DNA from: a candidate division Zixibacteria bacterium RBG_16_53_22
GTDB taxonomy: Bacteria > Zixibacteria > MSB-5A5 > UBA10806
Length of the DNA stretch: 64,000 bases
Assembly (NCBI GenBank): GCA_001775395.1
Contig: MEWP01000131.1
Span: forward strand, 16,350 to 80,349
Direction of reading: 5' to 3'
This document shows positions 6,316-19,436 of the stretch, one piece after another. The translations under genes and the position numbers were made by a program. The notes below the pieces were generated by a model. It saw nothing but the letters and a program-made list of their open reading frames with translations. It did not search any database and was not told the origin of the DNA. The first letter of the stretch is position 1. Each line of letters starts with the position of its first letter.

Positions 6316-7227
6316 TTACAACCGTATGCGCAGGGTTAAACGGTGCGTGTCGCTGAAATCATTTTTCGAGGGTACATAGGCATAGTCGAAGAAATAAGCC
6401 CTGAACGATATTCCTCCACCGATCGAGAATCCGCGCGAATCATAGTTAATGCCATAACCCGCGCGAAGGGAAAACATGTCTTGATAAATGTACTCTCCGC
6501 CGAGATTGAATTTATTGCTCTTATTCCCCCAATGTGGGATTACATAATCGCCGGAGAAAATGATCCCCCGCAGCCGCGAATCTTCCATGGGACTGCAGGA
6601 TGCGCCAATGCGGACCTCGCGGGGCAAGTCAAATGGCTTGTCGATGAATTTTGGCCTGGTGCCCAAATTTCGAACCGACATTCCCAGGGCCAACTCCGGC
6701 AACGGCATGTAAATGGCGCCAAGATCGATTGCGAAAGCCGAGGCGCTTTCGATGTCGAGTTTCTGATAGGCCCACTTGAGCGAATTGCCAAGCGACAGCC
6801 TGTCGCCGAACGGGCGCGCCAAAAATACCGAAAGAGTGAAATTGTGATCATCGAACGTGCCAAGCGGCTCGCTCGATGGGTTCGAATCGCGACGCTCGAT
6901 ATCGCTGGTCTGGCCGAGATAAAGCCCCAGGCCGAACCTTAAATCGCCCGATCGCGTAATGGCCGAAAAATGCTCCATCGAGGCATCGGTAAGATATGAA
7001 ACATGCATGAGCGAAATCTCGCTGCTCTGCATATGTGCCGCCGAGGCGGGATTGAAATAAGGCGCGCCGGCGTCTCCGGACACGGCCGTGAAAGCCTCCC
7101 CCATGGCCGCAGCTCGGGAGCCCGAGCCGATCAACATGAAAAGAAACGAGCCGGATTCGGACTGGGCGTATGACATGCCGTAGCCCAGGACAACAATGAC
7201 AATGGCGATCGCTGATTTGTGCATCAT
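6316..7227 (-). CDS. PorV/PorQ-like (FadL-like) outer-membrane beta-barrel protein, T9SS-associated, paralog 2
   Basis: Signal peptide and N-proximal motif SRAAAMGEAFTAVSGDAGAPYFNPAS. The C-terminus ends in an aromatic residue. Confidence 0.5.
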   Translation of the reverse strand: MMHKSAIAIVIVVLGYGMSYAQSESGSFLFMLIGSGSRAAAMGEAFTAVSGDAGAPYFNPASAAHMQSSEISLMHVSYLTDASMEHFSAITRSGDLRFGLGLYLGQTSDIERRDSNPSSEPLGTFDDHNFTLSVFLARPFGDRLSLGNSLKWAYQKLDIESASAFAIDLGAIYMPLPELALGMSVRNLGTRPKFIDKPFDLPREVRIGASCSPMEDSRLRGIIFSGDYVIPHWGNKSNKFNLGGEYIYQDMFSLRAGYGINYDSRGFSIGGGISFRAYFFDYAYVPSKNDFSDTHRLTLRIRL

Positions 7228-8216
7228 TAGAATCCCAATTTAAGGGCAAATAGATGCCCGTCCGACGTGCCGTGCTGACCTATCAAATATGCATACTCTA
7301 TGGCGGCCGACCGGTCCCCTTTGAGGTACGCCAGCGATCCCCCGAAAGTGGGGCTGCCCCGGTCGATTCCGATTCTCAGCCCGGCCCAACGCTTGTGCAT
7401 CTCGACCTCGTTAAACTTGCCCTCCTCGTATTCGTCCTCCACGAGTTGGATAACTTTCCTGGTGAACCAATATTCGGCGCCGGCCCTGAACAGCGTCCCG
7501 GTCTTGTCGCTTTTTTCGAAATCGACAGCCGGAATGACCCTGCCGTCAAGCAGATTGCCCGCCAGACCGAATTTGAATATCACCGGGTATTTCTCCTCGT
7601 AGGTTGTGCCATCGCCCCAATAAGCATTGGTGTCCCACCTGTAGGTGGAACCGAGGTTCTGAACCACACCGCCGAGCGAAATGAGCTCCCTGTAACGGAA
7701 TAAAAATCCGGCATCGACACCGATGGTGAAAACATCCAGCTCATCGAGCTTCTCCTGGAGATATCGCAGGCTGGCCCCGAGTGCGGCCGAACCATTGATC
7801 GCCTTGCCGAATGACAGAGTAAAAGCATTTTGATTGTTGTTGATATTGCCAATAATCTGCTGCGATGAGCCGCGGCCCACTATATCCGATACGCCGGCAT
7901 TGACCCAACTGGCGGCCATGACAGCCTCGCTCCTGATCGGAAATGAGATAGCGATGTGGCCGAGGTGCCGATCCAGCGAGAGGGCCTTATAGCTGAGACT
8001 GGTCCCCAGACGCATTTCGAATCCCAGCCCGGCGGGATTGAAGTAGGTGGCCTCGGGCCCCTCGGCAATTGCGGTGAAGGCCCCGCCCATCCCAAGCGGC
8101 CTGGCTCCGACTCCACTTCGCATGAAGGCGCCCGAATAGCCGGCGTCACCCTCACCGGCCATGGCGCAGGAGGCGGAAAACATAAGAACCGATATTATGC
8201 CAGCAAGTTTGTTCAT
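7227..8216 (-). CDS. PorV/PorQ-like (FadL-like) outer-membrane beta-barrel protein, T9SS-associated, paralog 1
   Basis: Signal peptide and GARPLGMGGAFTAIAEGPEATYFNPAGLG motif. The terminal F is typical of outer-membrane proteins. Its stop overlaps the start of paralog 2. Confidence 0.5.
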   Translation of the reverse strand: MNKLAGIISVLMFSASCAMAGEGDAGYSGAFMRSGVGARPLGMGGAFTAIAEGPEATYFNPAGLGFEMRLGTSLSYKALSLDRHLGHIAISFPIRSEAVMAASWVNAGVSDIVGRGSSQQIIGNINNNQNAFTLSFGKAINGSAALGASLRYLQEKLDELDVFTIGVDAGFLFRYRELISLGGVVQNLGSTYRWDTNAYWGDGTTYEEKYPVIFKFGLAGNLLDGRVIPAVDFEKSDKTGTLFRAGAEYWFTRKVIQLVEDEYEEGKFNEVEMHKRWAGLRIGIDRGSPTFGGSLAYLKGDRSAAIEYAYLIGQHGTSDGHLFALKLGF

Positions 8217-9715
8217 TTGATCACCACGACCTTTCCCCAGAGGTCCTCGCCGTAATCGAGCTCCACGCGGTAGAAATAAATCCCGTTGGCGACTATCTTT
8301 CCCTTATCATTGGTGCCGTCCCAGACAATGTCATCCGATTCAACGCCTCCGATTCTATCACGATCGACTGCAACCGTCTTTACCAACTCAAGATTGAAAT
8401 CGTAGATTTTCACCGATGCCCTGGTATTTCTATCCGGCCTGAAATGGACCGTCGAGCCTTTCCTGGTGGAATGATACGGAGAGAATGGGGATGGATAAGC
8501 ATAATGATTGGCAGGATCGAGTTGAGAGCGATATACCCGCCATTCTCCGTCAGATCGGCGCGCGGCGCCATCCGAGCCGCCGGCCCAGACGATATCACCG
8601 ACGACGTCGACTGCGTAAAATGGCGCGTTGTCCTGGTAAAAGGTCTGCCTTTGGGGATCACGGAGACCGGACAGAAGGGTCCAGGAGCTGTAATCGCCGT
8701 TAGATTGATAGAGCCCGAAACTGGTGGCGACATATACCGTATCGCCATTGAAGGCGAAATCCCAGGCCTCGACATCGGGATTATCCGATGGACCAATGAT
8801 ATTGGCTATATGCCAGGTCGCGCCGTCGTCCGTGGTGTAAGCCACTCGTCTCTCCTCCCCCGAAACGACTGCCCGACAAGCGGCCCATACCGTCTTGACA
8901 GTGTCGATCAAATTAATTCCCAGGGCCACCACGTGGTTTCCGGGAAGCTTGAGGGAATCGGGCAAAGTCGTGTCGGATACCGAGAAGGCGTACTGCTCGA
9001 TTGAATCCGGGTAAGTATGAAAGGCGCCAGTGATAGTATCGGCATAGAAGAAAAATCTATATATCCCCCTGGCGGCGCCGCCCCAAACCGAGAAGATATC
9101 CGGGAAATCGGTGGTATCCGTTTTGACAGAGAAAAAGCGATTGCCGAGGCTTCGAAATACGCTTCCATCAAAATCGGCGGAATCGGTGTTGACACTATCA
9201 AGCTGCGTGGGAAACAAGTTGGTCCAGGTGACACCCCAGTCCGTGGAACGGATGAGGCCGCCATAAAAGCAGGCGCCGAAAGCCAGCGAATCATGAAGCG
9301 ACAGGTCGTAGGCAAGCATGCCGACCCGGGTGGCCTGCATCGGCTGTCTATTAATCCAAACCGAATCGGGACGCCCCAAAAAGGAAATCCCATCTCCTTC
9401 GGGATACTCATCGCCCTGGAATTCGCGCGAGTGCGAGGTAGCGACCCAGACAGCCCGATCGTTGGCCGAGAGAGCCGAGACCTCGTCGGCCGCAAGGGGC
9501 TCGTGGCCATAGGTGGTCCAGGTAGCTCCACTGTCGCTGGTGGCTGAGGCGCCCCCGCCTGTGCCGAGCCAAATGGATGTGGAATCGTGGTCGATATCGA
9601 TTACGGAGTTGGATGTCATACCGGTCCGCCCGCCCTGGACAGTCATCTCGATTTCGGCATGCGCCAGGCCCACGAGGGAAAGCGGCAGGAATAAAGCGAG
9701 GAGTTTTCTCATCAC
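8213..9715 (-). CDS. Secreted BNR/Asp-box repeat protein with a T9SS C-terminal sorting domain (type A)
   Basis: Signal peptide and SxDxGxTW repeats (SDSGATWT, STDWGVTWT, TDDGATWH). The roughly 70-aa C-terminus (KIYDFNLELVKTV...GIYFYRVE...VVVIK) is typical of a Por secretion tail. Confidence 0.65.
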   Translation of the reverse strand: MMRKLLALFLPLSLVGLAHAEIEMTVQGGRTGMTSNSVIDIDHDSTSIWLGTGGGASATSDSGATWTTYGHEPLAADEVSALSANDRAVWVATSHSREFQGDEYPEGDGISFLGRPDSVWINRQPMQATRVGMLAYDLSLHDSLAFGACFYGGLIRSTDWGVTWTNLFPTQLDSVNTDSADFDGSVFRSLGNRFFSVKTDTTDFPDIFSVWGGAARGIYRFFFYADTITGAFHTYPDSIEQYAFSVSDTTLPDSLKLPGNHVVALGINLIDTVKTVWAACRAVVSGEERRVAYTTDDGATWHIANIIGPSDNPDVEAWDFAFNGDTVYVATSFGLYQSNGDYSSWTLLSGLRDPQRQTFYQDNAPFYAVDVVGDIVWAGGSDGAARRSDGEWRVYRSQLDPANHYAYPSPFSPYHSTRKGSTVHFRPDRNTRASVKIYDFNLELVKTVAVDRDRIGGVESDDIVWDGTNDKGKIVANGIYFYRVELDYGEDLWGKVVVIK

Positions 9716-9720
9716 GACCT

Positions 9721-10149
9721 CTAGTAGGCTGTTATTATTTGTGACGGGGTGTTTGATCGATTTTCCTGCTTGTCATATGCATAAAAAATAAACGTGTAAT
9801 CACCGGATTGGCTGGTGGGCAGCGGTGATGGAATAATATAAGTATAGCAACCATCGTTGGCGGTGGAGTCTCCATTGACCCCATCGTCATGCAAGAGAAA
9901 CCGAATGCCGTTGGAGGTGCTGTCCGGCCTGGTTACCATGTAATAAACAGAATCGATATCATCCAATCCGTCGGGATCAAATGCGTTAACGGCTAAATAC
10001 GAGGAATCGGGCGAGCCTTTTTCCAGCGAATCGGGCGCGACAAGGTCGAATAATACAGGACCATACCGGACGTCGATGACCTTTTTCTCGCAAGAAATAG
10101 CGACCAAAATGGATAAAATTGCTGCGCTAAAGCTGAATTTTGTTAACAT
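9721..10149 (-). CDS. Small lipoprotein with Asp-rich (possibly Ca-binding) motifs
   Basis: Signal peptide plus lipobox (LVAISC). Motifs DPDGLDD and HDDGVNGDSTANDG. It is the first gene of the T9SS mini-operon. Confidence 0.5.
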   Translation of the reverse strand: MLTKFSFSAAILSILVAISCEKKVIDVRYGPVLFDLVAPDSLEKGSPDSSYLAVNAFDPDGLDDIDSVYYMVTRPDSTSNGIRFLLHDDGVNGDSTANDGCYTYIIPSPLPTSQSGDYTFIFYAYDKQENRSNTPSQIITAY

Positions 10150-10249: not shown

Positions 10250-11182
10250 TTAAGATCGTATTTTTTCGGGGTAAAGCGCGGCTCCAAATCTCAGGCCTCC
10301 GGTTGAAACTACAAGTGTATCTTGCTCTATTATACTCAGGAAGGCCAGAAATATTCCCAAGCCCGGCAAAATAAGTTCGGCCCGATCTGGATCAAATGGA
10401 ATCAACTCCCGGCGCCGGGCCAGATTGGCATGCTCAAATTTATGGGCAAGCTTCGAAAGAAGGTCCAAAGTCAGGGGCGACCCGTGAATACGCGCAGGAA
10501 CATAATTTATGAGACCAGCTATCACAGCGGCCGCTGAGGTAATAGTGCCGCCGGTGGCAATGACAGCGGAATTTCCCAGGCTTGGGAATTCCGCCAGCGG
10601 GTTCATCAGATAGTCGACCCCCCGTCCTGTGTAATAGCCATAGAGGTCCTCGGTATCATCTGGAAGCGATTCAAGAAGCTTGAGCGCACCTATCGGGATG
10701 CTTTTAGAATCGAGGATCGTCCCTTTCGATGCAGCCGCCAATTCCGTTGAGCCGCCGCCAACATCGATCAGGATGATTTCGTCAGTCGACAAATCCAGGT
10801 TATACATGGCTCCAAGAAAAGATAATTCGGCTTCATTGCTGCCTGAAATTATTTGAAGATCGAGGCTGGTTTCCCGTTTCAAGGCCTTGGCGAATTCATC
10901 TGAATTTTCGGCCAATCTTAGGGCCTCAGTGCCCAGAAGATAAGCAGCCTCCCATTCCGATTCTCGCACGAACCGCGTGACCGCTGCTGCTGTTCGCTGC
11001 ATAGCTGATTCAGTGAGTCTCCTGGCCGATATTGACCCTTCTCCCAGACGCGTGGTGGCCTTCTTATCGGAAATGACCTCCAAACTCCTGCCATCAACCC
11101 GCGCCACGAGGGCCAGCGTTGAATTTGTGCCTATATCGACTACGAGGCGTTGTTCAGCGGGCACTGATAGAGCTCTTTCCAA
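10250..11182 (-). CDS. Ppx/GppA family phosphatase (short form)
   Basis: LVVDIGTNSTLALVA N-terminal motif and IDVGGGSTEL second ASKHA motif. 310 aa. Confidence 0.8.
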   Translation of the reverse strand: MERALSVPAEQRLVVDIGTNSTLALVARVDGRSLEVISDKKATTRLGEGSISARRLTESAMQRTAAAVTRFVRESEWEAAYLLGTEALRLAENSDEFAKALKRETSLDLQIISGSNEAELSFLGAMYNLDLSTDEIILIDVGGGSTELAAASKGTILDSKSIPIGALKLLESLPDDTEDLYGYYTGRGVDYLMNPLAEFPSLGNSAVIATGGTITSAAAVIAGLINYVPARIHGSPLTLDLLSKLAHKFEHANLARRRELIPFDPDRAELILPGLGIFLAFLSIIEQDTLVVSTGGLRFGAALYPEKIRS

Positions 11183-12551
11183 CGCGGGATTTTGCGGGGC
11201 CCGTGGAATCGGTCATCGTGAGCCATAGCAATTCACCTTGACCTACCAGACTGCCCTGTGTGAAAACATAATCTGGAATATTTAGATAACGATACCTGCT
11301 TCGGATAACCTGCCAATAGAACCTGGCCAGTTCCACGGCCTCGCACTCCGGCAAGATCATGTCGGCGGCAGGCGTAATCTCGTCCTCGGAAAGTTCCAGT
11401 CTCGGCTGGGTGCGGCAAAGGCGGATGGCACGGGTGGTCATATTATCAAGGTCGGGCATCTTGAACGCCGGGACATATAAATAAAATGCATTTTTGGCCT
11501 TATTCTTGGCTATCAAAGGAATCTCTCCGGTGAGGATTTTTGCAAATTCGCCGACACTGCTTTCGCCCCTGCCACCCTTGAATTGGAAACGCCAATACGG
11601 AAAATAGTCCTTTCCCTGCTCGTGCAAGGCCGACCTGGTCTTTGTAAGCCTGTAACCATCAGATACGACAATATATGATTTATGGCAATTCCGACAATAA
11701 TAAATAAGCGAAAACTCGGAAACGGGCAAATCCGCTCCGCAATTGGGGCATCGATGCGGTATCGGTTTGAATTCGTCGCCAATTACCAGGCCGGTTTCTC
11801 CCGATCTATCTTCAAATGGCTCAGATGTCTCGTTGATAATCCTTTTTGAAAGACCATCGATAAAATAGGTGACCGGCATCCCGCCAACGGTGGCCGACAG
11901 GGCCCAGACCGGATAATAGATTATCGAGAGCCCCTCCCCTATCATCTCGGAGATGACATGTTCCTTACCCTCGAGGGCGAAACCGAGATTAAACGCGAAC
12001 ATGCCCATAGCTGATTGTTTAGCATCGTCAGGACTTACTCTGATACCGAGAGGAATCGACCTCGGGAGCAAGATGTCTTTAGCAAAAACGCTTAAAGGAA
12101 TGACCTCCGGCCGCACGCCGAGGCTCTCCAGGCCGAATGCCTTATTCTCGAAAGCTGGAATAGTCAGATCAAAATGACGGCATCTCTGATGAAAAATGGT
12201 CTTGCTCGGTATGACAGCCTGATCGAGCTCGATCTCATCATCTTCGTATTTTTTCTCAGACATGAGCGAATAAGACATGCCCCGGAAACGATAAAATGGA
12301 AGGAAATACAACCGGGTTGTGTCTAAAGCCACGGTGGACAAACGGCCATTGTCCCTCAGATGTTTCTCGACTGCGCATTTCAAGGCGAAGTTATCGAGGT
12401 CGCTTGGATAATAATATTTCAGGATCCTGCCTGGCGCCCCGATCCGCATAACCAGCCCGCAAAATACGCATTGCATGCTGATAGCACCCTCGAGTGTCAA
12501 GAGAGACGAGCCACATCCGGGACAGTTGAAACTGGTCTTGTAATCGGCCAT
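11154..12551 (-). CDS. Double zinc-ribbon protein with an internally duplicated module (function unknown)
   Basis: The module CPGCG..CVFCG + YYYPSD..LYFLPFYRFRG repeats as CPNCG..YCRNCH + ..DYFPYWRFQFKG..FYLYVPAF. Its 3' end overlaps the ppx start by 29 nt. Confidence 0.6.
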   Translation of the reverse strand: MADYKTSFNCPGCGSSLLTLEGAISMQCVFCGLVMRIGAPGRILKYYYPSDLDNFALKCAVEKHLRDNGRLSTVALDTTRLYFLPFYRFRGMSYSLMSEKKYEDDEIELDQAVIPSKTIFHQRCRHFDLTIPAFENKAFGLESLGVRPEVIPLSVFAKDILLPRSIPLGIRVSPDDAKQSAMGMFAFNLGFALEGKEHVISEMIGEGLSIIYYPVWALSATVGGMPVTYFIDGLSKRIINETSEPFEDRSGETGLVIGDEFKPIPHRCPNCGADLPVSEFSLIYYCRNCHKSYIVVSDGYRLTKTRSALHEQGKDYFPYWRFQFKGGRGESSVGEFAKILTGEIPLIAKNKAKNAFYLYVPAFKMPDLDNMTTRAIRLCRTQPRLELSEDEITPAADMILPECEAVELARFYWQVIRSRYRYLNIPDYVFTQGSLVGQGELLWLTMTDSTGPAKSRVGKSSISAR

Positions 12552-12563
12552 TTTCGACCGCTT

Positions 12564-13685
12564 TTATTCGTTTCCGGCCAGACGCTCGCCGCAATTGGTG
12601 CAGAATTTCGATCCGGGAGTCAGCCTGGCACTGCATTTGGGGCAAACCGGCTTCTCACCAAGCTTTTTCCCGCAGGCGAAACAGAAATTGGCTTCCAGTG
12701 GCAAATCGGCGCCGCATTCGGGGCACTTATTCGCCGATACAATAGGGTTACCGCACTTGTAGCAGAATCGAGAATTCTGCGGCGTATCAATGCCGCATTT
12801 CTGGCATGTGATGGTCGGCAATGCCTCGGTCTTCAGATCGCGCTCGTTCGGCGAAAATGCGTTGGATAGCATCGCAGGCACCATCAGGCCAATACCAGCC
12901 CCCAGCCCCATGCCGGCCCCGGCCTGGGCAGGGTCACTGCCCGACGACATCGCCTTGGCCAGTGAATACTTGAGGAATTTGTTGAGGTCCCCAACAGCCG
13001 CCATCGAGGACTTCTCGTCGATCATCTTCTGGACCTCGTCCGGAGGGGTAATGGAGGTGATATAAAAATCAATAAGCTCCATGCCATATTTGCCGAATTC
13101 ATTGGCGATCTTCTCTTTTATCTCGCGGCTCATTTCATCATATCGCTTTGGCAAATCGAGAATGGTATCGAGCCGCTCACCAAAGATGTCATTAATCCTG
13201 GCGACTATAACGTCGCGAAGATAACCGGAGATAATATCTGTCGAAAACGCCGCCTCTCGCCCCACCAGAGAATTGATGAACAAGAGCGGCTCTACAATGC
13301 GGCAGGTGTAGACTCCATATCCACGAAGCCGCACCAGGCCCAGCTCCGTGTCACGGAATGCGACCGGATCGCGCGTACCCCATTTGAGATTGGTAAAGAC
13401 TTTGTGATTGATAAAATAGACCTCACACCTGATTGGGGATTTAAAGCCCCACGGCAACGATAGCGTGCGGGTCAAGAGCGGCACGTTGAGCGATGTCAGT
13501 GAGTGCCTTCCCGGACCCAGGATATCGTACCCCTTGCCGGATTTGAAGAAAACGGCCGATTGCGAATCCCTGACGATCAACTGCGCTCCGGCCTTGATAT
13601 CGAGCGAGCCTTTTTCGGGAATGCGGTGAATCATGTCGGTCGGGCTCATGTCGACCCATTCGAGAATCTCCATCATTACTGACAT
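12564..13685 (-). CDS. SPFH/band-7 (stomatin-like, COG4260-type) protein with C-terminal triple zinc ribbon
   Basis: SPFH-like N-terminal region. The C-terminus has CQKCG..CYKCG, CPECG..CFACG and CPKC..CTNCG zinc ribbons. Confidence 0.7.
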   Translation of the reverse strand: MSVMMEILEWVDMSPTDMIHRIPEKGSLDIKAGAQLIVRDSQSAVFFKSGKGYDILGPGRHSLTSLNVPLLTRTLSLPWGFKSPIRCEVYFINHKVFTNLKWGTRDPVAFRDTELGLVRLRGYGVYTCRIVEPLLFINSLVGREAAFSTDIISGYLRDVIVARINDIFGERLDTILDLPKRYDEMSREIKEKIANEFGKYGMELIDFYITSITPPDEVQKMIDEKSSMAAVGDLNKFLKYSLAKAMSSGSDPAQAGAGMGLGAGIGLMVPAMLSNAFSPNERDLKTEALPTITCQKCGIDTPQNSRFCYKCGNPIVSANKCPECGADLPLEANFCFACGKKLGEKPVCPKCSARLTPGSKFCTNCGERLAGNE

Positions 13686-13801
13686 ACCAAGCCTCCAAAT
13701 ATTACAGGTCTTTTTTCATAATCGAATACGCGACTACCCCGCCTATTCTATTATCGGCCGGAATTTGGGCCAATGGAGGATTCCATCCTCGTGCCCCGCC
13801 T

Positions 13802-14039: not shown

Positions 14040-14116
14040 TGGTCGGGGCGAGCCGATTTGAACGGCCGACCACTTGCACCCCAAGCAAGTGCGCTACCAG
14101 GCTGCGCCACGCCCCG
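14040..14116 (-). tRNA. tRNA-Pro (anticodon GGG)
   Basis: Minus-strand sequence CGGGGCGTGGCGCAGCCTGGTAGCGCACTTGCTTGGGGTGCAAGTGGTCGGCCGTTCAAATCGGCTCGCCCCGACCA. Cloverleaf with a 7-bp acceptor stem, anticodon loop TTGGGGT and GTTCAAATC T-loop. CCA is encoded. Confidence 0.9.
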
Positions 14117-14150: not shown

Positions 14151-14492
14151 TCAAGAGAAAAGTTTTAGGATATCCTCGAGTTCAAGCCGGATTTCATGCA
14201 GCAGCGCGCGGGTCCTTTCGGCTGACGAGTTCTCGGTAACCTGCTTGCCTTCTTTCTTGAGAAAATTGCGGGCTCCCTCGATTGTGAAGCCTTGTTCGTA
14301 TAGCAGGCGTTTGATCTGCATTATCCGCTGGATATCCTTGGCCTGGTAAGTGCGATTGCCGGCCCGGTTCTTGCGAGGCTTGATGTGAGGAAATTCCTTC
14401 TCCCAGAATCGCAGCACGTATGGCACAACACCCACCATTTCGGCCACCTCGGAGATGGAATAGTACATTTTCCCTTGAAGTCCTTTTGGCAT
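14151..14492 (-). CDS. MerR family transcriptional regulator
   Basis: N-terminal [27 protein letters not shown] (MerR signature), followed by a coiled-coil tail. Confidence 0.7.
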
Positions 14493-15723: not shown

Positions 15724-16614
15724 TTATTGCTTCAACAATCGCCGTATCTTACAGGCCTTGACAGTATTCGACAGCAGCGCCGCAATAGTCATGGGACCGA
15801 CCCCGCCAGGTACAGGCGAAATCGCCCCGGCCACCGCCTTCACCGATTCGAAGTCGACATCTCCCACTACCCTCTTCCCTTTGGGATGCGTTAGATCGGC
15901 AATCTCATTTGTTCCAACGTCTATAACAATCGCCCCAGGCTTGACCATATCGGCGGTTAAGAATCCGGCCTTCCCCATGGCGGCGATTATGATATCCGCC
16001 TGCCTGGTGTATGATACTATGTCTTTGGTGCCGGTATGGCATAGCGTCACGGTGGCATTCGTGAAACTGGTTTTTGAGGCCAGCATGGTAGCCAATGGCT
16101 TGCCGACCAGGAGGCCCCTGCCCAAAATCACCACGTGTTTACCGGCCGGGTTATGGCCGCTGCGATTCAAGAGCTCAACTATTCCCAAAGGCGTGGCCGG
16201 CTCGAAAAGAGGCCGGCCCGCCAACAAAAGCCCCTGATTGAATGGATGAAAGCCATCGACATCCTTGGCGGGATGAATTGTGACCGTGATCGCCGGCTCA
16301 TTTATTCCCTCGGGAAGCGGTGATTGAATCAGGATGCCGTCGATATCTTCTCGCTTGTTGAGCCCGACTATTAGCTCCTGGATTTGATCATGGGAACTGC
16401 TCTTGTCCTTTTTTATGACTTCTGAAAAAATCCCGATTTTTTCGCAGGCCGAGGCCTTCATTCTCACATACAGCGCTGAGGCCGGATTATCGCCGACAAG
16501 CACCGCCGCCAGCCCCGGCACGATCCCCTTGGAACGGAGAGCATCGATCTCGATCTTAAGCTCTTCCTTTATCTGGTCGGCTACTTTCTTGCCATCGATG
16601 ATTTGAGCTGCCAT
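15724..16614 (-). CDS. folD: Bifunctional methylenetetrahydrofolate dehydrogenase/cyclohydrolase
   Basis: FolD motifs YVRMKASACEKIG and GGVGPMT. 296 aa. Confidence 0.9.
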   Translation of the reverse strand: MAAQIIDGKKVADQIKEELKIEIDALRSKGIVPGLAAVLVGDNPASALYVRMKASACEKIGIFSEVIKKDKSSSHDQIQELIVGLNKREDIDGILIQSPLPEGINEPAITVTIHPAKDVDGFHPFNQGLLLAGRPLFEPATPLGIVELLNRSGHNPAGKHVVILGRGLLVGKPLATMLASKTSFTNATVTLCHTGTKDIVSYTRQADIIIAAMGKAGFLTADMVKPGAIVIDVGTNEIADLTHPKGKRVVGDVDFESVKAVAGAISPVPGGVGPMTIAALLSNTVKACKIRRLLKQ

Positions 16615-17435
16615 CAGAATCTCTTCTGGCTTCCCGGCTCGCCCTCCTCGGAGGGCATATTATACATTATTCGCTGAATCGATTTCGCCTTGCCGGTACC
16701 GGGATCGGCCTCTACCACCACCGCGGCCAGGCGCACATCGTCCGTGGCGGTATTGAATTTGTTCGGAAGCGCGTTGATAATGCGATAAAGCGCGTCATTT
16801 ATTTGCACTCCTATAATCGACGTATAAGGGCCTGTCATGCCAACATCGGTGATATAAGCCGTGCCTGACGACAGAACACGCTCGTCCGCTGTCTGGACAT
16901 GGGTATGCGTGCCGAATACGCCGGCTACGCGGCCGTTTAGATACCAACCCATAGCCTGCTTCTCGGAGGTTGCCTCGGCGTGAAAATCGACGAATATGAG
17001 CTTCGTTCTCCTGGAAACCTCGGCGACAATCCTATCCGCGGTCTTGAATGGACAATCGATGTTCCACATGAAAATCCGCCCCTGGAGGTTTATGACGGCT
17101 ACCTCTTCCCCGTTCCGGGCGGTGTAAATATTATACCCCAGGCCGGGAGCTCCCGATGGGTAATTCGCGGGTCTGAGGAGCCGGGGTTCGGCCTCGAAAT
17201 AGGAATGAATCTCCCTGCGATCCCAGATATGGTTGCCCGATGTTTGACAATCGACCCCATACGACGATATTTTCTGAGAGATCTCCTTGGTCAAACCAAA
17301 GCCGGCGGCGGCGTTCTCGACATTGGCTATGACAAAATCGTATTCTGCCCGCTGCTTCTTGCATTCGAATAAATAGCTCGCCAGGCATACGCGCCCTGGC
17401 TTGCCGGTGATATCGCCAACGAAAAGTACTCTCAC
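16614..17435 (-). CDS. ymdB: YmdB-like metallophosphoesterase (TIGR00282 family)
   Basis: [15 protein letters not shown] start, GNH motif and HTH..TAD metallophosphatase motifs. 273 aa. Confidence 0.8.
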   Translation of the reverse strand: MRVLFVGDITGKPGRVCLASYLFECKKQRAEYDFVIANVENAAAGFGLTKEISQKISSYGVDCQTSGNHIWDRREIHSYFEAEPRLLRPANYPSGAPGLGYNIYTARNGEEVAVINLQGRIFMWNIDCPFKTADRIVAEVSRRTKLIFVDFHAEATSEKQAMGWYLNGRVAGVFGTHTHVQTADERVLSSGTAYITDVGMTGPYTSIIGVQINDALYRIINALPNKFNTATDDVRLAAVVVEADPGTGKAKSIQRIMYNMPSEEGEPGSQKRF

Positions 17436-17878
17436 TTATAGCCCCCTCCGAATAACTCCGCGATTGCCCTGTGAATGCGGTGGAAAAATGGAGTGCCCGG
17501 CATATACATCAGCGCGCAACCCTTAATTGGATTGATTCCAAGGCGGCTCACCAGAGCCAATAGATGCCTGTCATAGCAACCCTGCTGCAGCCAGATGTGC
17601 TCGGCGCCGCTGGCCGCGACCTCATCTATTATCGACTGCGCATTTTCAGGCCTGGTGCCGATAATGACCGCCTGCGGCTTCTCGGGAAGCGATTTGAATG
17701 AATCGTAGAAGTTGACGCCGTTGAAATTCCCGCCTTGAGGTCCAATCGCATACACCCTCTTCCCCAGCGCGACAAGCGAGTCGTGGATCGAGCGCGTGAA
17801 ATTGAGCCTGTTTCGCGAAACCCCGACAATTGCAAAGCTGTCCGATTCGTAAAATTGCCTGACCCGATTACTTGGCAT
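17432..17878 (-). CDS. CoA-binding domain protein (YccU-like)
   Basis: AIVGVSRN..RxS...L...G..V..IGP CoA-binding pattern. 148 aa. Confidence 0.65.
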
Positions 17879-19436
17879 AATCCACCGCCCTGACCTCGCG
17901 AATGACAGTCACCTTGATCTGCCCGGGATATTCCATATCCGATTCGATCTTGCGGGCAATTTCATTCGCCAGGCTGACACTGGCGACGTCATCGACCTGA
18001 TCGGCCTCGACAATGACTCTAATCTCTCTGCCGGCCTGGATTGCATAGGCCTTGGCCACCCCCTTGAATCCATCGGCCATCTCTTCTAACTTTTCCAGCC
18101 GCTTGATATAACCCTCGAGAGTTTCCCGGCGGGCGCCCGGCCTGGCCCCGGAAATGGCATCGGCAGCCTGCACCAGCACCGCATAAGGCGTCTCCATCGG
18201 GATGTCCTCGTGATGACTGGCAATGGCGTTTAATATGACTGGATTTTCATTGAACTTGGAAGCGAATTCTACTCCGATTTGCGTATGGGTACCCTCGGTT
18301 TCACGATCGATGGCCTTGCCGATATCGTGCAGCAACCCGGCTCTCTTTGCCAGGGTGCCGTCGAGTCCGAGTTCGGCGGCCAAAATTCCGCAAATCATGG
18401 CGACTTCCTTGGAATGCTGCAGAACATTTTGCCCGTAGCTGGTGCGGAAATTGAGCTTACCCAAAAGCTTTACAATTTCGGGATGGACCCCATGGACCCC
18501 TACGTCAAAACAGGCCTGTTCACCGGTCTCGCGAACAATGACCTCCATCTCCTTTTCGGCCTTGCCGACAACCTCCTCGATCCGCGATGGGTGAATGCGC
18601 CCGTCAATAATTAACTTCTCCAATGCCATGCGGGCAACCTCACGTCGTACCGGATCATAACCGGAGAGAATGACGGCCTCGGGGGTATCATCCACAATGA
18701 CATCGATTCCGGTGGCTGTTTCGAACGAACGAATATTGCGACCCTCCCGTCCGATTATGCGGCCTTTCATCTCATCGGATGGCAGATTTACCACCGAGAC
18801 GCACGATTCGGCGGAGTAATCGGAGGCGCATCGCTGAATGGCCTGGATAATGACGTTGCGTGCCTCCTTCTCGGCGTTACGTTCGGCCTCCTCCCTGATT
18901 TCCTTGATTATGCCGGCCGCCTCGCGTCTGGCCTCGGCCTCGAGATTGGAGATAAGGAGCTTCTTGGCCTCATCGGAGGTCATGCCGGCGATCTTCTCGA
19001 GTTGAGTATTCTGCTCGGTGATAAGCCGCTCCAGGTCCTTCTCCTTGGTCTCGGCCACCTTCTCCTTAACCGCCAGGGCCTTCTCCCGATGAGTAATCTC
19101 CCCCTCTTTCTTATTTAATACATCTACTTTGCGATTAAGATTGTTCTCCTTGACAGCCAGGGCCTGCTCGAGTTTGGTGATCTCGGATTTCTTGACCTGG
19201 GTTTCGCGTTCGAATTTCTGCTTGGCCTTGAACCATTCATCCTTGGCCTCCAGCAGCGCTTCCTTCTTCTTGATTTCGGAGGCCTTCTCGGCCTCGGCGA
19301 TTATTTTCGTCGCCAATGCCTCAGCCTTGGCGATCCTGCCCTCCCCCGTCTTGCGGGAGATGACAAGGCCGATCAGGAAGGCCGACACGATTAGGATAAG
19401 GCCTGCCCCGATCACATAGTACAAAGACGTCTCCAT
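17868..19436 (-). CDS. rny: Ribonuclease Y
   Basis: N-terminal transmembrane helix, long coiled coil, KH domain ([12 protein letters not shown]) and HD domain (HSKEV..LLHDIGK). Confidence 0.9.

Follow-up and report, generated by a model that had tools for sequence, protein, structure and literature searches.

A YdjG/SamG-like zinc-ribbon protein with an internal duplication, encoded beside an SPFH gene in a Zixibacteria bacterium

Within a stretch of 64,000 nucleotides (nt) of contig MEWP01000131.1 from the candidate division Zixibacteria bacterium RBG_16_53_22, hereafter called the window, a gene on the minus strand encodes a 465-residue protein, referred to below as the target, whose two halves are, on the evidence of profile comparisons, diverged copies of one module made up of a zinc ribbon followed by a globular alpha/beta domain. 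By the same comparisons the N-terminal module is homologous to YdjG (SamG) of Bacillus subtilis, and the gene lies directly behind an SPFH gene of the YdjI/SamI type. We consider it reasonably probable that the target is a cytoplasmic, zinc-binding, duplicated relative of YdjG/SamG that serves as a dedicated partner of the SPFH scaffold encoded upstream.

The target is 100% identical to a database entry from the same organism, "hypothetical protein A2W25_12800", and the open reading frame (ORF) is present as given in a preliminary description of this DNA, which had been made from the letters and their reading frames. The gene and the parts of its product are as follows.

11154..12551, minus strand: target gene, 465-residue ORF with two modules, each a zinc ribbon plus an alpha/beta domain
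12450..12530, minus strand: zinc ribbon 1, residues 8-34, with C10, C13, C28 and C31; aligns to ribbon 2 of YdjG
11802..12422, minus strand: globular domain of the N-terminal (N) module, residues 44-250
11676..11762, minus strand: zinc ribbon 2, residues 264-292, with C268, C271, C286 and C289
11202..11618, minus strand: globular domain of the C-terminal (C) module, residues 312-450, the more diverged copy

Internal duplication and predicted fold

Cysteines 10/13/28/31 and 268/271/286/289 share an identical CxxC-x14-CxxC spacing, and each ribbon has the pair of CxxC knuckles on beta-hairpins that marks the Cys4 type and is retained in homologs. The cysteine pairs, on whose conservation the preliminary description had made its reading depend, are invariant at all eight positions in 44 homologs (24-79% identity), and among 174 two-ribbon homologs taken from an exhaustive phmmer search their conservation is 99-100%. 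These two sets also provided the close-homolog alignment (44 sequences) and the diverse alignment (174 family members) that were used to compare the halves of the protein.

When the N half was compared with the C half as single sequences by BLASTP, the ribbon alone could be aligned (22 residues, E 0.01). The 44-sequence profile aligned the halves at 96.7% probability (E 3.9e-10), mostly through the ribbon signal, and with the ribbons removed it gave no significant repeat and preferred another register, in which YYPVW was placed against YFPYW. In the 174-sequence profile, hhalign aligned the N half (residues 1-255) with the C half (256-465) at 98.5% (E 2.5e-15, 195 columns), pairing residues 5-239 with 263-462. 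The match persisted after deletion of both ribbons (95.6%, E 1.2e-8, score 53.8, 143 columns), for which the highest control scores were 17.3 among 40 column-shuffled profiles and 22.1 for a reversed profile. The aligned motif pairs include CPGCG/CPNCG, CVFCG/CRNCH and LPFYRF/FPYWRF, as well as FYLYVPAF with FDLTIPAF. The paired strands agree with the secondary structure in the AlphaFold2 (AF2) model, where PFYRF (85-89) and TIPAF (130-134) of the N module correspond to PFWRF (318-322) and YVPAF (359-363) of the C module, and further aligned elements are helix 174-192 with helix 402-417 and strand 197-222 with strand 435-445.

Taken at the level of sequence profiles, then, the duplication is real and comprises the whole ribbon-plus-domain module, with about 200 residues per copy. 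The two divergent copies of a zinc-ribbon-led module seen in the preliminary description are borne out by these alignments, with and without the ribbons, and the lack of a significant internal repeat, which it had named as grounds for giving up the idea, was not what profile-profile alignment returned. Its motif pairs were likewise recovered; the extent it gave to the repeat, some 90 residues, was too short.

A finer repeat occurs within the modules. Residues 44-136 and 165-250 aligned at 90.6% (E 1.3e-6), and 165-250 aligned across the modules with 395-465 at 92.4%. The N-module domain accordingly contains a pair of PepSY-like units, each of helix plus strand (44-136 and 165-250), which are linked through a conserved IPAF strand and an SLGxR loop, and the helix-plus-strand sub-repeat inside each module accounts for the alternative register preferred by the 44-sequence profile. 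Residues P85, R88, G145, R147, Y212, P214 and D232 of the N module are conserved throughout the superfamily. The elements recognized in the C module are the PFWRF strand, the VPAF strand, helices and a last strand of LxWLP type.

The full-length AF2 model, built on the 44-sequence alignment, has a pLDDT of 86.2 and a pTM of 0.84. Residues 1-450 are folded, mostly with high confidence, and residues 451-465 are disordered, leaving a hydrophilic C terminus. The pseudo-dimeric fold proposed in the preliminary description is plausible as a single-chain pseudo-dimer, given that the model is confident over its whole length. Among the nearest known systems are PepSY-type domains (YpmB, 2gu3; the C-terminal domain of YpeB, 5boi) and cystatin/NTF2-like alpha+beta folds. 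No significant match to a solved structure was found for the C-module domain, and the top matches of a Foldseek search against the PDB, long-hairpin pore-forming toxins with TM-scores of 0.06-0.09, were dismissed as noise. In some distant members, the tip of a long beta-hairpin in the N module (target residues ~100-118, with low pLDDT) bears a low-complexity insertion of ~150 residues, as in P0070 (locus L002, 6001-7698), where it covers residues ~95-250. Extra N-terminal ribbons are present in the relatives P0156, P0162 and P0190, the first of which also matches GYF_2 weakly.

Relationship to YdjG/SamG and linkage to an SPFH gene

Pfam and NCBIfam searches of the target returned only sub-threshold ribbon matches and left the globular part without a model, as was also the case for distant members of the family. 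The best Pfam ribbon scores were below the gathering cut-offs (in brackets), at 17.1 bits for DZR (27.3) and 15.0 bits for Zn_Ribbon_TF (29), the latter model being the one matched by ribbon 1, and the NCBIfam matches were all far below cut-off. A sequence search of the PDB likewise left the globular parts without a family. The exhaustive phmmer search yielded 569 cluster representatives (50% identity) at E <= 1e-3, most of them 450-520 residues long and with the same two-ribbon layout, so that a family lacking a Pfam or NCBIfam model is now defined.

A relationship to YdjG is just visible by BLASTP (E 4e-4; ~23% identity over 95 residues) and was pursued with a profile of B. subtilis YdjG (P0225) and 110 relatives. 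Residues 53-306 of YdjG aligned with target residues 7-240 at 98.6% in hhalign (E 1.1e-15, 220 columns), and ribbon-free YdjG aligned with the N module at 94.9% (E 4.1e-8, score 52), compared with scores of at most 18.7 for shuffled profiles and 14.5 for a reversed one. The target and YdjG also share the position of a ribbon directly before the homologous alpha/beta domain, the motifs h-Y-h-P-F-W and h-h-P-V-W, a D/N-G-x-(S/T)-G turn, the lack of a Pfam model for the globular part, and an operon that includes a Band_7_1 plus zinc-ribbon SPFH protein of the YdjI/SamI type. The preliminary description could not assign the protein to a named family. Its globular part is still without a Pfam or NCBIfam model, but these profile scores mark the protein as a remote relative of YdjG/SamG, a tandem-duplicated and apparently soluble variant that does not call for a wholly new category.

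The two proteins differ in layout. In YdjG, which is labeled a "TFIIB-type zinc ribbon-containing protein", two ribbons follow one another at the N terminus, ahead of a single globular domain and a C-terminal transmembrane (TM) anchor; Ravi et al. described it as a pair of zinc ribbons with an NTF2-like domain related to YpeB and a TM segment (bioRxiv 10.1101/2020.09.24.301986). In the target, each module has a single ribbon (10-31 in the first, 268-289 heading the second), the module is duplicated, and no TM segment was detected. In a crude hydropathy scan (KD19) it showed no hydrophobic tail at the C terminus, and its maximum of 1.69 lay inside ribbon 1. The TM segment of YdjG, used as a positive control, reached 1.56 at residue 315, so that a TM threshold of KD19 >= 1.8 is too strict to recognize this genuine TM segment. 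From the hydropathy scan and the AF2 model together, the target is most likely cytoplasmic and soluble. Single-module relatives of metagenomic origin, P0074 and P0076 (324 residues), carry the same ribbon and an N-type module (LYFLPFWKL, GFGLRG, SLIYYPVWRLEF...VVVDGINGT), but unlike the target they have one module only and end in a hydrophobic C-terminal tail like that of YdjG. The gene of P0076 is flanked by two unannotated genes, encoding 242 and 206 residues.

The SPFH gene upstream of the target and the relevant parts of its product are as follows.

12564..13685, minus strand: SPFH partner gene, 373 residues, Band_7_1 (Pfam E 5e-63) plus DZR/Zn_Ribbon_1
12573..12812, minus strand: C-terminal zinc ribbons of the SPFH protein, three ribbons with 6 CxxC, residues 292-371
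12855..12923, minus strand: glycine-zipper-like hydrophobic segment of the SPFH protein, residues ~255-277, AGAGMGLGAGIGLMVPAML

The SPFH protein aligns colinearly with B. subtilis YdjI (24% identity over 327 residues, E 8e-30) and, judged by this alignment, is a YdjI/SamI homolog of the same architecture. Its TAA stop codon lies 12 nt before the ATG of the target and in the same frame (window positions 12549-12566, minus strand). In a tblastn search with B. subtilis YdjG, one high-scoring segment pair crossed the SPFH stop codon and placed the two ribbons of YdjG on the last SPFH ribbon and ribbon 1 of the target.

The linkage was followed in 35 related loci (L001-L035; Zixibacteria, Ignavibacteria-labelled bins, Terriglobales and unclassified bins), of which two pairs are redundant and one, L029, is cut by the contig end, leaving 34 that could be evaluated. 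In 34/34, a Band_7_1 plus zinc-ribbon SPFH gene stands immediately upstream of the target homolog and on the same strand, even at target identities as low as 21-25% and in several phyla. Across the loci, the SPFH partner is 55-83% identical, against 21-53% for the target. Because its gene always follows directly on a YdjI/SamI-type SPFH gene, the target is most likely a partner of the SPFH protein.

The hydrophobic segment of the SPFH protein has the pattern AGxGxGxGAGxGLMVPxML and is found at the same position in L001-L035; in 30 of the 33 full-length SPFH partners recovered, the glycine-zipper motif coincides with the hydropathy maximum. The KD19 value of the segment (1.53) is close to that of the YdjG TM segment (1.56), whereas the maximum of B. 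subtilis YdjI is 0.70, its equivalent linker being much more polar (Gly/Met/Asn/Gln). The segment is a candidate element for membrane association, perhaps a re-entrant one.

Proposed role and alternatives

SPFH/flotillin-like scaffolds are ubiquitous and their workings poorly understood. In B. subtilis, where dissection of the SamGHI-PspA system is recent and the role of SamG unclear, the soluble YdjI, and via YdjI also PspA, depends on YdjG and YdjH to reach the membrane (PMC8581546; bioRxiv 10.64898/2026.02.06.704340). The pspA-ydjGHI (= pspA-samGHI) layout, confirmed in L038, has pspA in front, YdjG upstream of ydjI and ydjH (TPM) in between, and differs from the target locus, where the SPFH gene comes first and the target second. 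The tblastn searches with B. subtilis PspA and YdjH, which are of limited sensitivity, gave no match in the window or in 37 loci, and neither PspA nor YdjH/TPM was present in the Pfam-annotated neighborhoods of L001, L002 and L004. The SamG-like domain thus accompanies SPFH genes of the SamI-like kind well beyond the Firmicutes, in a two-gene unit without detected PspA or SamH, which points to this domain as a core partner of the SPFH subfamily.

We propose that the anchoring role may have shifted from the YdjG-like protein to the glycine-zipper segment of the SPFH protein itself, and that the YdjG-like protein would have become a soluble tandem pseudo-dimer. Such a protein could bind the SPFH oligomer through two equivalent faces, with the invariant SLGxR loop (G145, R147) and the D232 turn as candidate contacts, and may engage the three-ribbon tail. 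Its binding would control assembly of the SPFH scaffold, client access or signaling, independently of PspA. Partner binding, one of two roles suggested in the preliminary description, is therefore favored by the SPFH linkage and the YdjG/SamG homology; the other, nucleic-acid binding, found no support.

In this role, the target would resemble the NfeD/YuaF-type partners of stomatins and flotillins, small genes adjoining SPFH genes whose products are presumed to modulate SPFH assembly (PMC2636767). Both are dedicated partner genes that adjoin an SPFH gene and are apparently co-transcribed with it, a likeness of role and not of family, since NfeD proteins reside in the membrane and have an OB-fold while the target is a soluble tandem of ribbon and PepSY-like domains and matched none of the NfeD families in Pfam. 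A wider reading, which we put forward tentatively and regard as doubtful, is that the ribbon plus PepSY-like module is an ancient and direct, PspA-independent partner of Band_7_1 SPFH proteins and forms a second class beside NfeD. Here, as a soluble pseudo-dimer in one chain, it would clamp either the three-ribbon tails or neighboring subunits of a self-anchoring SPFH ring, the two genes would make up a minimal membrane-stress module, and the pspA-samGHI operon of Firmicutes would be its elaboration.

Several observations weigh against the proposal of a duplicated YdjG/SamG relative in partnership with the SPFH protein. The C module alone is not significantly similar to YdjG (27% in profile comparison), the model of the C half has no PepSY-type structural matches, and the duplication rests on sequence profiles and a matching order of secondary structure, not on superposition. 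The P0076 gene (L036, 5001-5975) does not stand beside an SPFH gene, so that the module is not exclusively tied to such genes, and no fusion of the SPFH protein and the target was found among the 150 best representatives, the longest of which has 618 residues. In addition, the strong contact of YdjI in the B. subtilis two-hybrid analysis is YdjH and not YdjG (PMC8581546), and a YdjH-type gene was among those that tblastn failed to detect beside the SPFH-target pair.

Of the other explanations, there is a small chance that the target acts as a zinc/thiol redox or metal sensor, in which oxidation of the two Cys4 sites or loss of their zinc would alter its conformation and turn the SPFH system on during metal or oxidative stress, in the manner of Hsp33 or RsrA. 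The strict conservation of the eight cysteines that make up the Cys4 pair, the three Cys4 ribbons of the partner and the nature of the related B. subtilis operon as an envelope-stress system all accord with this possibility. The argument is purely inferential, Cys4 ribbons are mostly structural, and no thioredoxin or redox gene occurs in the conserved neighborhood. A sensor function is compatible with the adaptor model and does not exclude it.

The target might also function independently of the SPFH gene, for instance together with the Ppx/GppA-family phosphatase encoded downstream, the adjacency being inherited synteny. The loci fetched are mostly from Zixibacteria-related bins, and many of them have a Ppx/GppA gene as the next gene downstream, which in the window overlaps the target gene at its 3' end. 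Adjacency to the SPFH gene is nevertheless kept where every other neighbor differs, in L002, L004, L026 and L030-L035, in which the target is 21-29% identical and Ppx absent, and YdjG and YdjI are linked independently in Firmicutes. Such independence is unlikely because the adjacency extends across phyla.

We consider it distinctly unlikely that the target is a nucleic-acid-binding regulator whose TFIIB-type or ribosomal-protein-like ribbons bind DNA or RNA. The idea draws on sub-threshold ribbon matches of Zn_Ribbon_TF, L37ae, S27a and Elf1 type, on names given automatically to homologs at JGI ("RNA-binding Zn-ribbon protein", "RPC12/RpoP") and on the isoelectric point (pI) of 9.4 of residues 301-465. 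Those matches fall below curated cut-offs and cover knuckles of only ~30 residues, the pI of the whole protein is 7.0, and no helix-turn-helix or other nucleic-acid-binding domain was found with Pfam or NCBIfam. Moreover, the conserved neighbor is an SPFH scaffold gene and not one of transcription or translation, and the homolog YdjG is a membrane protein acting in protein recruitment. Finally, SPFH and zinc-ribbon proteins occur in some defense contexts, but an anti-phage pair of SPFH scaffold and zinc-ribbon sensor is highly improbable here, as the target, SPFH and Ppx genes have no PADLOC match, the neighbors are housekeeping genes (XseA, FolD, YmdB, tRNA-Pro, Ppx) and the synteny is stable and not island-like.

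The proposed partnership of the target with the SPFH protein overturns nothing known and is of moderate interest for the SPFH/PspA field. For work on structure and binding, the target provides the module in a soluble form that is probably easy to purify.

Neighboring genes

Two further features adjoin the SPFH-target pair.

13745..13773, minus strand: promoter-like site upstream of the SPFH gene, sigma-70-like and weak (9/12 consensus only)
10250..11182, minus strand: Ppx/GppA-family phosphatase gene, downstream of the target

The Ppx/GppA gene is probably co-transcribed with the target, because the 3' end of the target gene runs over its predicted start. Of the 35 fetched loci, 17 have a Ppx/GppA gene as the next one downstream; most of these are labeled Zixibacteria or are close relatives, and the more distant loci lack it. 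The loci listed with it are L001, L008-L010, L012, L013, L015, L017-L022, L027 and L028. After the Ppx/GppA gene, a small Ig-like (Big_3_2-like) protein is encoded in one to three tandem copies, at 9721-10149 in the window. Further downstream, at 6316-9715 on the minus strand, are three genes resembling cell-surface or outer-membrane components, which encode a 500-residue protein with a C-terminal FlgD_ig-like domain, a 329-residue protein without Pfam match and a 303-residue UPF0164/PorV-like protein.

On the other side of the pair, a tRNA-Pro gene (anticodon GGG; 14040-14116, minus strand) lies between the SPFH gene and a MerR-family gene (14151-14492). A YmdB-family phosphoesterase gene (Pfam E 1e-103) is located at 16614-17435 on the minus strand, and an ORF at 17868-19436 on the same strand appears RNase Y-like by eye only, with a gene for a CoA-binding protein between the two. 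The arrangement of YmdB and putative RNase Y (16614-19436) recalls the rny-ymdB pairing of Bacillus.

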